From Escherichia coli (GTDB taxonomy: Bacteria > Pseudomonadota > Gammaproteobacteria > Enterobacterales > Enterobacteriaceae), in NCBI RefSeq assembly GCF_024298765.1, contig NZ_CP101210.1: 64,000 bases of DNA; one strand, written 5' to 3'. Positions 27,001 through 33,000 of this stretch are shown here, in pieces. Each line of letters opens with the position of its first letter. Position 1 is the stretch's first letter. A program made the position numbers.

Positions 27001-30000
27001 GACAATCATTTCATCTTCAGAAGTAGACGAGGCATGAGCATGAAGCGGTATGAAAGACGCTAATGCTGGCAAAAGCGCAGCGAAAGTTATTTGAGTTTTC
27101 ATGAATCACTGATCGTTATGTAAATATTTATATTACGATCGGTGCATAGGCAAAATTATGATCCAGATCACACGTGAATGTAAGTTATTTACAAATTACG
27201 CTAACCTTCTGTCTCCGCTCTTTGCAGCATAAAAGTATGGCGGCGCGTTGTTGAAAGCAGGAGCGGCCGGGTTGTCAGAAAGCTGGTTTGGACGCAAGTA
27301 ATATATAACAACTCTGATTACCGCATACTGTCAGGACAGTATCTACTTGAGCGTCCGCCTTTGGCACAGAGCGGACGATATCACTGAGCTGAAGGTCCGC
27401 TGAGAGCGAGGAGCGGAAGTAAGCATGTATCTGCTAATGCGAAAAATCACTAACGAAACATTGGATCCCCATTGTTGCCGATCTTTAGTGGCGTTCAAGA
27501 TTAGCCCCAATCCTGATTATCATTTGATTACACTGACTGAAATGATATAAAACCTAATTATCTGATATTTGTAGGGGTTTAGTAATGTCACTTCCTGTTC
27601 CTTTTGGTGCAATTGTTACAGTAGTGAAGAAATGCTGGTCTACTCTTACCCAGATAATGCTGATAAAAACTTATCAACTCTCACATGAGCGCTGGGCAGT
27701 GAGACACAGGCTAGGGGCGAGCTGGCATTCCTTAGGGAATTATTTGGAGTACAGTCTACGATTTGCTCAGTTGACAGATAAAGAACCTCGTTGTTCACGT
27801 ATTGCTTTCAGAAGCAAAGAGGAACGACTGCAACAAGTTGAACTTGTTTTTGAAGCCATTGGCAGTGGCTTACGCTACCAAGAAACACTATGCATTCATG
27901 ATGTAAATAACTCACCGATAATATTAACGCTTTCAAATATTCCTACACTTGATGTACTTATTCTAGATGATGGATTCGCATTTACGGTTGAACAGTACCA
28001 GTTAAAATATTGCACGATAAAATTAATGACTGGTGAAAGTATATCTATTGACAATTCGCCCAAATATTCGCTAATGCAAAACTGGTGTCTCAATGATACA
28101 TGGAAACGGCGTTGGGGTATCATCTGGAACTGTAATGCAATTGAATGTGCCCGAAGGCGTATTGCTGAATATTGGAAATGGGGCTTTTGTCTGCCGTTAG
28201 TGGGACGCCCCCCGTTATATTCACCATCGCGAAAAGGTATTCATCTGTTTGAAGCAAAACCGTTACGCTGGTTTATGACACGCCCATGGTGTCTGAATAT
28301 CCAGTTTTGGACGGCAATTTGGTCAGGACTGTTTATTCTCAGCGATGAGAATGTCTTGCAATGGCGCTGGAAAGAGCCACCACAACAAGACTAACTTTCA
28401 CGAAGGCCGTCCGCTCTGAGCGAGGAGCGGACCTCAGTGCTGGTTAGATTAACTAGTCTAATTGTGACTACCTAATTTGAAACGATATAAAAATGGTATG
28501 ATACATGATCACTAATCTTTATCTGGAATATCTCTCGCATCGTAATAATCAATCCCAAGTCCAAAGCTTAACTCAAGCCCCTCAGGACCTCCGTGGATAT
28601 CGCCAACCCCAAATGTATTTGGAGCATTATTATTTCTGAATTTTTCAAGATCATTTTTATTTGGAGGCGATTTGTCGTCATTAGAGAGATCTGGAAGTGG
28701 ATCTAACTCAAAATAATCAACTCCAGCAGGGTTATAGGCAAGGTAAAAATTTCTATAGTTGCCAGGATTTCCTAAATAATGCCCTTCTTCATATTGATAG
28801 AACTTCGAAGAATAGCTCGACTGTAAATAATCAATATCACTTCCAAAATCTTTGAACTTATGTCCAAGGGTTTTTCTCAGATATGGTACTTCAGGATGAA
28901 AATTCTCATCCTTGCTGGTTACGGAATAGAGTATCACTGTGTTATTATTATCATAAACCACTTGCAGATAGAACTTTTTGAAAGAGTAAATATACTCATG
29001 AACCCTCCCATCCTCAGAATGTTCTTCCTTCACGGGAGGGCCAAAAATTGACTCGATGTACTTTATTGACGCTCCGGTGTAAATCACATGAAGATTATCC
29101 TCTGCTTTTTTTTGCAAAAAATTATCTGCGATATGTTGATATAAATCAAACACTCCGTTCAATGCAACAAAATATCCAAGAACAGCAAGAATACCACTCA
29201 AAAAAACAGTAATTAATGATTTTTTAAGTTTTTTAGGGGGATGTGACATAGTTCCTCTCTTTTTGTTTTTTAATTTTTTTGGAGTGTATCATGATTTCTC
29301 TCTTATTTTTTCAAAATTCTATTTATTTCTGAATGCAAAGTAAAACGCTGACATGCAAAAAAGTCATTCTTATTTAAGATTAAGTCAAAAATTTATCGAA
29401 AGACATTCTATTAATCTTACATGAATAGAGCAACGTCCGCATCTGGCACAGGACTGCTGTTGCAGCCCTGGCAACCTTAGACTTCAATCGATTCAGAGAT
29501 CTCTAACGCATCATCGACTTCAATGCCCAGATAACGGACTGTGCTTTCCAGTTTCTTATGGCCTAACAGAAGTTGGATCACCCTGAGATTCTTAGTTTTC
29601 TTGTAAATCAGGTAAGGTTTTGTTCTTCTCAAGGAATGTGTACTGTAAAGCGAATCTTCGAGACCAAGTTTTGCTACCCACCCATGAAAAATTCGGTTGT
29701 ATTGCCGGGTTGATATGTGTTGGTTAGTACCGACCCGAGATCGGAACAAATAGTCTTTACTGCGTAAATTGCCAAGCTTTATCAATGCAGAAACAGCTTC
29801 TCTTGTCCCTTTGGTTATCTCAAATTGGACAGGGCTGCCGGTTTTCTGTTGTAGAACCGTAGCTCTGCTTGAAACAGAGCTACCATATGCAACATCAGAT
29901 ACTTTGAGTTTGACTAGATCACAGCCTCGAAGCTTACTGTCCAAGGCCATGTTGAACAGAGCTAAATCGCGTGTTTTACCTTCCAGTTCAAGTCGGATTC

Positions 30001-33000
30001 GGATACCCCAGATATGAGATATCTGAAGTGGTCTTTTTTGGCCTATGATACGGTCTTTGTTCCACGGTGACGTGTTCATACTCAAATCTCCTGCAATGTG
30101 GGAGATTTGAGTATGGTTGTCCTTATGAGCGAGGCGCGGAAGCTCACTTTAGGGCAATCTAATTCACATGTCAGAGGATTTATAAAAAGAGAATAGTGCA
30201 GATTTTAGGGATACTTACACTTGCTATGGCATACTTTTTGGGACCCCATCAGTTTAGGGATCTGAATCGCCACAGCTTTGGTAGGCACCTGCTTTATGGT
30301 CACGTGCACCCGAAGATCCTGCGGGTACGCATGGGTCACGAAAAGTACGAGTCTACAGAAGTTAATTTACGGTTTTTTGCGCTCGATGTGGCTGCCAGCT
30401 ACCAAGTCCAGTTTACACTGGATACAACTAACGCGCTGTAGCAACTGCGTGGTGGAAGCTGATTAAAGGAGATAATGATGTTCGATGTTGACGATACTGC
30501 ACCCGATACTCCCGCCCCCCGTGAACTCAGTCAGGATGTGCAGGCGCTGATCAACAATGGTCTGGATTTTCTGGATAAAGCCCGTGAAGAGTTGGAGGCC
30601 TCGAAGCCGAAGTTCTCCGTCGTCAGTTTCTGGACTGCGGTCGAGATTTTACTGAAAGTTCCGCTGGCGCACGAACACTGGTCGTTGGTCTGCAGCCCGA
30701 AAAAGCCAATAAAAAAGCAGGCTTACCTAGCCGGTGATTTTCAGTCGGTGACCTACGAAGAAACCCGTGAAAGGCTTAAGGACGTACTTGAAAGACCCCT
30801 AGACAGAGAAACGGACAGTGCTTTTGATAAGGTCAGAAAGCACCGCAACCGCGTAGTTCATTTCTACCACCCCACTTTCACCGAGGCTGAACAACGTCAA
30901 ATACTCAAAGAACAAGCTGACGCCTGGTTTGCCCTGAACCGGTTATTAAGGGATGAATGGAAAGTTATCTTCGGTGTCAAACATAATTGGAAGCTGGCTT
31001 TCGGTGAAACTCGTCTGATTAGGGGAAACAAATTTTATGCCGAGGTGCGGTTTAAACAGGTTAAGCCTGAACTCGAGCAGCTCTCTGAAAAGAATATTCA
31101 AATCGGTAACTGCAATGAGTGCCATCAGCATGCGACGGTAACAGGGACTGAAACGACCGGTAATGAAAACCGTAAGCTTGAAGTTACGCGGTGTAAGGTT
31201 TGCACCAGTGCTGTAAGGCAAATTACCCTAGTTTGTCCAGACTGCGAAATACCTCAATTGCTACCTGAGGGAGATAGTGATTTTGAATGCGAACACTGCG
31301 ACTACACTTCGGATAGGTATAAACTGCTGGATGAGGAGTTGTTCCACAGTGTGGATGAACAGCTACTCTCCGTATTTCCTGCTGGATGTACCAATTGCAT
31401 GACTCCTGAAAGCGTATGTAAATTTGGAGACGGCTATCTTTGCACTCAGTGTTTCATCTATTACACCGAGCTTCATGTATGTGGTTGTTGCGGTCACCTG
31501 AGCGATAGCGTTCCTGAACTGAGCCATATCCGAGGATGTGAATTTTGTGATGGTGACCAACGTTATTTTGATGACTGAATTACCATACATAATCTAGGCT
31601 CTTCAGGGATGGGTTGGACAGTCCGCTCCTGGCACAGAGCGGACTGTCAGATTAGATTCAGACCTGTACTCATTAGCTGATACAAATCAGCCACATATAC
31701 CTGCATTCCAAATAATTTCAGGCAGATATTATCTCCGTGAATCCCCCCGCCACCTTTCCGGTGCGCGGGGTTTTGTCTTTTTTCACCGGGAATACATGTA
31801 TGAATCCGTCTGATGCCATTGAGGCAATTGAAAAACCGCTCTCCTCCCTGCCTTACTCACTTTCCCGTCACATCCTGGAACATCTGCGCAAACTCACCAG
31901 CCACGAACCCGTGCCTGGCATTATGGGTAAAAGCGGGGCCGGTAAATCCTCACTCTGTAATGCACTGTTTCAGGGGGAGGTCACCCCGGTCAGTGCACTC
32001 ATGACAGCGCTTCCCGGACATGCCGCCATCCCTCTGATGACACGCCTGCAGGACGAACTGCGCACGGAGTCTGTCCGCACTCAGACCCGTGAACAGTTTA
32101 CCGGTGCGGTGGACCGGATATTTGACACGGCGGAGAGTGTCTGTGTTGCCTCTGTTGTCCGTACGGCCCTGCGCGCAGTTCGTGACACGGTGGTCTCTGT
32201 TGCCCGCGCGGTATGGAACTGGATTTTCTTCTGAACCCGGTGGTGATGTACCAGGCTGTTGTTACAGATTTTTAACTCCATGAAAACACTATGCAAACGC
32301 AGCTATACCCGGGGTGTCCCCTTGCGTTGTGCTTCCCAAGTTAATAGAATACATCGATCGTTACTATCATATCGATCGTTATAAACGATCGTTTGTAGTA
32401 AATGACCTCCTCCGTGGTTGTCATGAAAATGCGTCTCAGGAAGGTTAAATAATGCACGAAAAGAACATCGCCCTGCTTTGTGATGAAGCCGACCGACTTT
32501 TGCAACTGAACATTAATCTGCTCCGGCAAATGGTTGAGGAGCCAGATGTGTTATCTGACAGTAAGAACGAAAACAGACTGCTTTTTGATAAACAGAAAGC
32601 ACTGAAAAGAATTGAGGAGCTGGAGGGCGAACAAATCAAAACCGCCCGCAGGGAGATGGTGCTGGCTGTTGTCGGCACGATGAAAGCAGGCAAATCAACC
32701 ACCATCAACGCCATTGTGGGGCAGGAAATTCTGCCTAACCGTAACCGCCCCATGACCTCTGTACCGACGCTCATCCGCCACGTTCCCGGAAAAACTGAGC
32801 CGGTTCTCCATCTGGAACATATTCAGCCTGTCCGCAATTTATTAATCACACTGCAGGAAAAACTCGCCACCCCGGCAGGACAGCAGGTCGCACAGACCCT
32901 GCAGCAAACCGGGGATACCCGCGAACTGCTGGATATTCTGACGGATGATGGCTGGCTCAAAAATGAATACCACGGGGAGGAGGAAATCTTTACCGGACTG

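Follow-up and report, generated by a model that had tools for sequence, protein, structure and literature searches.

Inverted repeats flanking the fun(Z) gene of P2-like coliphages and enterobacterial islands were reported in 2004 (Nilsson, Karlsson and Haggard-Ljungquist 2004, as related in passages of PMC8987985). An enzyme for these repeats is not named in the literature searched, in which the 2004 paper is represented solely by those passages. A 2026 survey of P2/P4 hotspots described systems that are nearly identical although their host elements are unrelated, and reported 'cryptic' locations on chromosomes; the passages of it that matched our search mention neither a small recombinase nor these repeats, and the matching passages of a 2022 hotspot paper name no recombinase. 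The pipolin paper does not mention the recombinase discussed below. The quick traffic of accessory and anti-phage genes among unrelated mobile elements is an open question. The window, i.e. the complete stretch of 64,000 nucleotides of Escherichia coli DNA analysed here (assembly GCF_024298765.1, contig NZ_CP101210.1), contains a gene for a minimal tyrosine recombinase, hereafter rec, whose start codon is enclosed in a perfect hairpin, together with short palindromic sites of two classes, A and B, that coincide with the ends of gene cassettes. Its setting is an aspV-type island (the CFT073 aspV pathogenicity island). Positions 27100-31750 match E. coli CFT073, Nissle 1917 and ABU 83972 with 100% identity; on one side of this segment is an iron-uptake operon of the TonB/ABC type and on the other a region with yeeP-like GTPase and dynamin genes. 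In our view, rec is probably the cassette recombinase for the A and B sites.

The same site family occurs in phage P2. Here, fun(Z) (15675-17261 of the phage) is bracketed by an A site at 15336-15357 and a B site at 17433-17454, both of which fit the A/B consensus. The two bracketing sequences read TCCACTC-TGTGCCAA-AAGCGGA and TCCGCTT-CTCGCTCA-AAGGAAA, then CTGTCAGATT. The flank CTGTCAGATT also follows an A site of the window, from 31645 onwards, and a P2-like prophage carries rec between such sites at the G-FI hotspot. The P2 locus and the window have in common the site family and the layout of the hotspot, of phage or island respectively, in which inverted sites enclose the cargo. In contrast to the window, the P2 locus has no recombinase; the window adds a candidate enzyme, the A/B logic and arrays of several cassettes, and its site family reaches well beyond enterobacteria, unlike the fun(Z) repeats as they are known. 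The repeats themselves were already reported in 2004, and what we describe is more interesting than a lone small integrase. Neither this recombinase nor the site sequences or protein accessions are described in the full-text literature, a search outside of which the 2004 primary paper lay.

The sites are composed of the arms GTCCGCTC and GAGCGGAC, i.e. (G)TCCGCTC and GAGCGGA(C), around an asymmetric centre of approx. 8 bp, which results in a core of 22-24 bp. GTCCGC-N12-GCGGAC palindromes occur five times in the window (at 21633, 27353, 27395, 28409 and 31621), compared with 0.13 expected, and two copies with one degenerate arm each abut rec. The centres fall into two classes that differ at two bases, TGTGCCA in A and TGAGCGA in B. 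From 94 distinct enterobacterial copies we derived the consensus GTCCGCTn - TG(T/A)GC(C/G)A rr - AGCGGAC rTT, the better-conserved arm of which (AGCGGAC-RTT) faces the cargo. Overall, the motif was found 185 times, versus 33-62 times in shuffles. In 17 enterobacterial loci polarity is strict: the 38 A sites without exception are oriented like rec, the 39 B sites against it, and hybrid centres are absent among 70 exact sites in 1.67 Mb. The original prediction had noted palindromes on either side of the gene, related to the hairpin at its start codon. The palindromes are present but constitute a family of their own, unrelated in sequence to the hairpin.

Along the window, the sites follow each other in a defined order. 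A B site (21633-21656, plus strand) forms the junction between the left island backbone and the iron-uptake cassette. An A site (27353-27376, minus strand) is a direct repeat of the A site at 31621 and is separated by an 18-nt linker (27377-27394, GATATCACTGAGCTGAAG) from a B site (27395-27418, plus strand); the linker holds the position that rec occupies elsewhere, and the composite A-linker-B junction recurs in other genomes (locus L002, 10626-10689; locus L005, 8723-8786). Another B site lies at 28409-28432 (plus strand), like the preceding one a match to the motif. The rec module is bordered on its 3′ side by the A′ site (29435-29458, minus strand, GTCCGCAT-CTGGCACA-GGACTGC) with an A centre, and on its 5′ side by the B′ site (30119-30140, plus strand, GTCCTTA-TGAGCGAG-GCGCGGA) with a B centre. 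At the last A site (31621-31644, minus strand), which lies upstream of the gene for the yeeP-like GTPase, the array meets the right island backbone (CTGTCAGATTAG...).

Comparison between strains revealed that A and B sites coincide with the breakpoints of cassette presence and absence. The rec module is found in 927 of 5426 complete E. coli genomes, and its homology to other genomes is limited to the segment from approx. 29431-29444 through 30132-30140, thus extending from one site to the other. The flanks differ entirely between its contexts, which include a lambdoid prophage, an island in the ypjA region, an IncF plasmid and the G-FI hotspot of a P2-like prophage. Three comparisons of occupied with empty states were made within this type of island. 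In Ecol_AZ162, the A site of the iron cassette is joined straight to the right backbone and 4268 bp of the window (27377-31644) are not present, which shows that this segment is bounded by direct A repeats. From the otherwise similar island of S1-CAM-02-A the iron cassette is missing as a unit, with the junction within a B site. The same strain is devoid of rec and of the neighbouring gene for HEC-08, a candidate anti-phage family; the junction reads GTCCGCAT-CTGGCACAG-AGCGGAC, and the outer arm of the site at 29435 remains with the adjacent cassette, which encodes an ETEC_3214-family protein. Strain p1-49 carries rec and the HEC-08 gene at 99.5% identity between dynamin and reverse-transcriptase cassettes. 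A single cargo end was found joined to three partners, in each case within one A site. As the flanks are unrelated, homologous recombination between them cannot explain these junctions. The notion of a cassette recombinase acting on local sites, put forward in the original prediction, fits these comparative data.

The gene itself (29477-30079 on the minus strand, stop codon included) has an intact reading frame and encodes a 200-amino-acid protein that RefSeq lists as the 'site-specific integrase' WP_001305361.1. Although the open reading frame extends to a TTG at 30085, the ATG at 30079 is preferred on account of the RefSeq annotation and the spacing to the Shine-Dalgarno (SD) sequence. Its sole Pfam domain is PF00589 (Phage_integrase catalytic), covering residues 35-184 (E = 7e-19). 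The catalytic set R51, K79, H148, R151, H174 and Y183 is invariant in an alignment of 35 family members with 59-96% identity, and the mean column identity of 75% is high given that the proteins come from different proteobacterial classes. An AlphaFold2 model (pLDDT 87.7) shows a single compact catalytic domain and no N-terminal domain. Among solved structures, Foldseek placed it nearest to the catalytic domains of XerA, XerH, Cre, Tn1549 Int and lambda Int, and the modelled fold is that of an Xer/Cre/Int catalytic domain. A profile of the family retrieved only Xer catalytic domains from the PDB, at approx. 1e-6 (XerD at 5e-7), and a phmmer search of the PDB with rec revealed no close solved relative. 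With the PF00589 match, the R-K-H-x-x-R-H/W-Y set and the catalytic-domain fold, rec is a member of the tyrosine recombinase superfamily, and its description as a catalytic-domain-only enzyme of about 200 amino acids was borne out. Directly after the stop codon follows a GC-rich, terminator-like hairpin (29449-29470, minus strand, CAGGACTGC-TGTT-GCAGCCCTG) that merges with the inner arm of the A′ site, and a GC-rich hairpin 3′ of the stop codon is also present in most relatives.

This short architecture, with the gene intact, is a feature of the whole family, be it in alpha-, beta- or gammaproteobacteria. With few exceptions, the relatives in 80 genome loci measure 200-209 amino acids. In a library of 1.84 billion representatives, rec matched 595 clusters at E ≤ 1e-30, the best 150 of which are all shorter than 300 amino acids. 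At E ≤ 1e-5, more than 7999 clusters formed at 90% identity matched. The family extends over Enterobacterales, Alteromonadales, Pseudomonas, Halomonas, Xanthomonadales and Burkholderiales and, on plasmids, also includes Alphaproteobacteria. Such uniformity bears on the idea that rec is all that decay has left of a larger island integrase, namely its C-terminal part, and that the hairpin and the palindromes are incidental. The island does contain pseudogenes, and a recombinase-like remnant lies nearby. An intact frame, invariant catalytic residues, the column identity of 75% and a constant length in three proteobacterial classes are, however, at odds with decay, as is the location of the remnant on the other strand beyond the B′ site. 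Decay is thus already contradicted by the present data, and we consider it extremely improbable. The homology between genomic contexts ends approx. 52 nt before the ATG, at a recombination site and not in gene debris, so that the original prediction was right in not regarding rec as a decayed integrase. The remnant itself, an open reading frame of 81 amino acids at 30196-30441 (plus strand), is similar to the C-terminus of tyrosine recombinases, with an i-E of 0.038 for PF00589 and E = 5e-4 in BLASTP against rec. It was rejected as upstream debris of rec because of its strand and position, and is probably debris within the HEC-08 cassette.

Assignment of rec to a described subfamily was attempted with family models. 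The scores remained far below the cut-offs for FimB/FimE (NF007371, 25.5 bits versus 222; NF007370, 18.2 versus 221), for IntI (TIGR02249, 15.9 bits versus 265) and for Xer proteins (XerC/D/S/H/A), the best of which was XerA with 58 bits versus 220. Furthermore, rec has no N-terminal core-binding domain of the Xer type. The catalytic domain is closest in similarity to Xer proteins. This proximity, together with the presence of relatives on 444 plasmids, many of them large or conjugative, would suit an enzyme of resolution or stabilisation comparable to Cre/loxP or ResD/rfsF, which resolves multimers or cointegrates at one nearby site and shuffles cassettes as a by-product. We regard such a function as quite unlikely. 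In the window rec belongs to a chromosomal island, and elsewhere prophages carry it. Each locus has numerous sites that obey the strict A/B order, and differences in cargo have their breakpoints at these sites. Moreover, tightly shut translation would be odd for a housekeeping resolvase.

The element suspected of shutting translation is the hairpin at the start of rec (30077-30115, minus strand). A perfect 15-bp inverted repeat with a 9-nt loop over GGAG and ATG had been predicted and was confirmed: the arms at 30077-30091 (CATACTCAAATCTCC) and 30101-30115 (GGAGATTTGAGTATG) are 100% complementary. In the rec mRNA, the 3′ arm comprises the SD sequence GGAG, 8 nt and the ATG, and the 5′ arm constitutes the anti-SD. 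The RNA fold has a z-score of −6.15 relative to dinucleotide shuffles. Perfect hairpins with arms of at least 12 bp are rare, with four distinct ones in the 64-kb window, the rec hairpin among them, and none in 28 of 30 shuffles. An Rfam search of 27000-32500 gave no match at E ≤ 1.

The structure is conserved throughout the family. We took the 45 nt ending at the start codon from all relatives and calculated the minimum-energy fold for each sequence. For 67 of 78 distinct sequences, this fold contains a hairpin whose 3′ arm is the paired SD. The SD-hiding stems have a median length of 9 bp and comprise 64 distinct stems, in whose outer pairs all four Watson-Crick types are used. These pairs are fold predictions made sequence by sequence and not an independent covariation test; in a MAFFT-based consensus fold, divergent stems were poorly aligned and the stem was recovered only in part, which is why the individual folds were used. 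The arms are specific to each clade, namely CATACTCAAATCTCC/GGAGATTTGAGTATG in enterics, CATAATTAAATCTC/GAGATTTAATTATG in Proteus, TTGTCCTCC/GGAGGACAA in Pseudomonas and GGTTCTCCTT/AAGGAGAACC in Paraburkholderia. A structure that is kept while its sequence is free to vary argues for a function at the RNA level rather than for a protein-binding or crossover site. Thus, the hairpin looks like a translational gate, and the proposal that it occludes translation initiation gained support from the stems of differing sequence in the relatives. The second proposal of the original prediction, a DNA recombination site, did not hold. Both this role and that of an operator were rejected, as the hairpin varies in sequence from clade to clade, in contrast to the conserved protein and A/B sites, and as homology breakpoints do not fall inside it. 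A subclade of Burkholderiales (loci L049, L075, L077, L086, L089 and L094) has no SD-sequestering stem. These loci have a short GATGG/CCATC hairpin 5′ of the recombinase (GATGGG/TTCATC in L094) with the SD in the loop.

An invertase of the FimB/FimE type had been envisaged, and inverted orientations in other isolates had been proposed as a check. A synthetic query in which the module 29443-30133 was flipped between its flanks found an inverted module in none of the 5426 complete E. coli genomes, which are consensus assemblies, minority orientations within a culture being outside their scope. As described above, all 77 sites of the 17 enterobacterial loci keep one polarity. The missing inversion and the strict polarity together argue against a Fim-like switch. 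The likeness to FimB/FimE lies in size and build, as rec has about 200 amino acids and one domain, with no separate N-terminal core-binding domain; membership in the family is not supported by 25.5 bits versus a cut-off of 222. A phase switch that flips the A′-B′ or a neighbouring segment could draw on this architecture, on the weak match to NF007371 (E = 8e-6) and on the opposite polarity of the sites bracketing rec. We consider it very unlikely, given that inversion was not observed, that two coupled positions set the A centres apart from the B centres with no hybrids, and that the Fim scores are so low. No segment was encountered in both orientations in these assemblies, and inversion was rejected.

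If the sites are real, the question is which enzyme serves them. In every clade examined, the gene has the same anatomy: B-type site, hairpin, open reading frame, GC-rich hairpin, A-type site. The site variant shifts with the recombinase clade. Enterobacterial loci contain 46 sites of the enteric type and one each of the Pseudomonas and Alteromonas types; Pseudomonas loci contain none, 31 and one, and Halomonas loci none, nine and none, respectively. The variant of a clade recurs elsewhere within the same locus. These associations disfavour the possibility that the sites are real but served by another enzyme, such as an island or phage integrase, XerCD or an as yet unnamed factor, with the rec module being just another cassette whose recombinase has a different substrate. 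In addition, the sites are unlike the dif sequence, and the hosts (P2, a lambdoid prophage, a CP4-type island, an IncF plasmid and an ICE-like element, i.e. one resembling integrative and conjugative elements) have no other recombinase in common. Even so, many genomes and arrays have sites and no rec, phage P2 among them. We regard service by another enzyme as unlikely.

Several observations weigh against our interpretation and are best considered together. The right-backbone segment that begins at an A site has matches in 4299 genomes, compared with 927 that carry rec. Sites are thus far commoner than the gene, so that most arrays have no rec in cis and another enzyme might act on them. Both arms proximal to rec, in the two sites that border its module, are degenerate. 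A convincing promoter was not found within the module, the only candidate being a 9/12 match in the neighbouring cassette. The connection between rec and the sites is one of association, from which we infer that its product may be the protein that cuts them. Likewise, it is the absence of hybrid centres and of inversions, and nothing else, that suggests that the A and B centres are heterospecific.

Taking these points into account, we still hold that rec is probably the recombinase of the A/B cassettes. It would then be the dedicated enzyme of a site-specific system for cassette integration and exchange inside mobile elements. Its translation would normally be blocked by the 15-bp hairpin, which pairs the ribosome-binding site and the start codon. 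The protein would act as a simple Cre/Flp-like enzyme on core sites of 22-24 bp. Recombination of A with A or of B with B between direct copies would excise or integrate circles and build arrays; examples of such circles might be the 2.2-kb unit of rec and the HEC-08 gene between the A sites at 29435 and 31621, and the 4.27-kb block between those at 27353 and 31621. Two replicons would exchange their cargo through a single A x A event combined with a single B x B event. The two-base difference between the centres would block A x B recombination and thereby prevent inversion and loss.

In its complete form, this scheme amounts to a natural recombinase-mediated cassette exchange (RMCE) with two heterospecific site classes of opposite polarity and an enzyme silenced by a hairpin. 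We advance it tentatively, as possible rather than probable. The same reserve, as part of one joint judgement, applies to the wider idea that the minimal family supplies the missing enzyme by which cassettes of defence and other accessory genes are quickly exchanged between phage hotspots, islands, integrative and conjugative elements (ICEs) and plasmids across Proteobacteria. If rec recombines the A/B sites, it would provide a concrete and readily testable mechanism for the fast movement of accessory and anti-phage genes between unrelated mobile elements, and would link the P2 fun(Z) locus, the islands of uropathogenic E. coli, IncF plasmids and metal-resistance modules of environmental bacteria. 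Genome engineering would also gain a recombinase of very small size whose two 22-24-bp sites are heterospecific by nature.

The cargo of the array is varied. Each segment of cargo is framed by a B site at one end and by an A site in inverted orientation at the opposite end, and two such segments are separated by mobile-element backbone, by the 18-nt linker or by the 0.7-kb rec module. Cargo 1 (21657-27352, minus strand) encodes an ABC transporter and a TonB-dependent receptor for iron uptake; including its ends (21633-27376), this operon behaves as one cassette of 5.7 kb between a B and an A site. Just upstream of the receptor gene lies a 22-nt AT-rich near-palindrome (27107-27144; 86% complementary, overlapping arms), which could be the binding site of a Fur-type regulator. 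Cargo 2 (27419-28408, plus strand) codes for a hypothetical protein of 269 amino acids (27585-28394) with no family match, and cargo 3 (28433-29434, minus strand) for the ETEC_3214-family protein (28512-29249). Cargo 4 (30141-31620, plus strand) carries the HEC-08 candidate anti-phage gene, preceded by the recombinase-like remnant. Its product (30475-31578, plus strand, 367 amino acids) matches the PADLOC candidate defence family HEC-08 with E = 1e-173 and has a DUF3644 region. This gene moves between arrays together with rec. Among the cargo near the recombinase gene are genes for TIR, SIR2, SMC-like ATPase, restriction and reverse-transcriptase functions and HEC-08, and also arsenic and copper resistance clusters. 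Direct arrays of sites with a spacing of 1-2 kb occur in Halomonas, Enterobacter and Pseudocitrobacter. In locus L057 of Stutzerimonas stutzeri (11861-13520), a 1.6-kb segment is placed between inverted repeats of approx. 35 bp that hold the site variant of the Pseudomonas type. The segment looks like a cargo cassette whose ends are extended.

Downstream of the array (region 31737-34848 of the window), the yeeP-like GTPase gene is truncated. The gene of the dynamin family, annotated as frameshifted in CFT073, appears in the window as one long open reading frame (32452-34848). Unrelated to rec is a further perfect hairpin of 16 bp (53039-53077; AATAAAAAAGGCACCG/CGGTGCCTTTTTTATT), which has the appearance of a bidirectional intrinsic terminator.

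Apart from the fun(Z) repeats, several known systems invite comparison. Integrons likewise combine a tyrosine recombinase with arrays of cassettes of one to few genes, short palindromic sites and defence cargo. In contrast to IntI, rec has 200 amino acids and is devoid of the IntI-specific insertion, and its putative sites are duplex-type cores of 22-24 bp as opposed to attC hairpins of 57-141 nt. Cassettes are found on both sides of rec and in both orientations, there is no attI/Pc platform, and the sites form two classes of opposite polarity. With a length of 22-24 bp, arms of 7-8 bp and a two-sided array, the sites do not qualify as attC, a judgement made on these features with no attC covariance model run. 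FimB/FimE-type invertases share the size, the catalytic-domain-only architecture and the short inverted sites. They differ in that rec scores below their cut-offs and that the products observed are insertions, deletions and swaps and not inversions.

Fold-back inhibition of transposase translation is known from IS10 and IS50, where the promoter of the element starts inside the stem. As in these elements, a stem over the ribosome-binding site and the start codon would silence a mobility enzyme on read-through transcripts; the difference is the promoter, located inside the stem there and not found in the rec module. The pdif modules of Acinetobacter plasmids, reportedly described by Blackwell and Hall in 2017, are said to be bounded by inversely oriented XerC/XerD sites. 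Discrete cargo, short sites alternating in orientation and the recurrence of a module in different replicons are common to both systems. The dif-like sites of pdif modules are, however, credited to the host XerCD, whereas non-dif sites are accompanied here by a dedicated minimal recombinase. Engineered RMCE, finally, makes use of Cre with lox variants or of Flp with FRT/F3. A cassette lies between two sites that differ only in the centre, and a double crossover swaps it without inversion or loss. The arrangement around rec is alike, and if A and B are heterospecific, as we infer, it would represent a natural counterpart of the engineered design.

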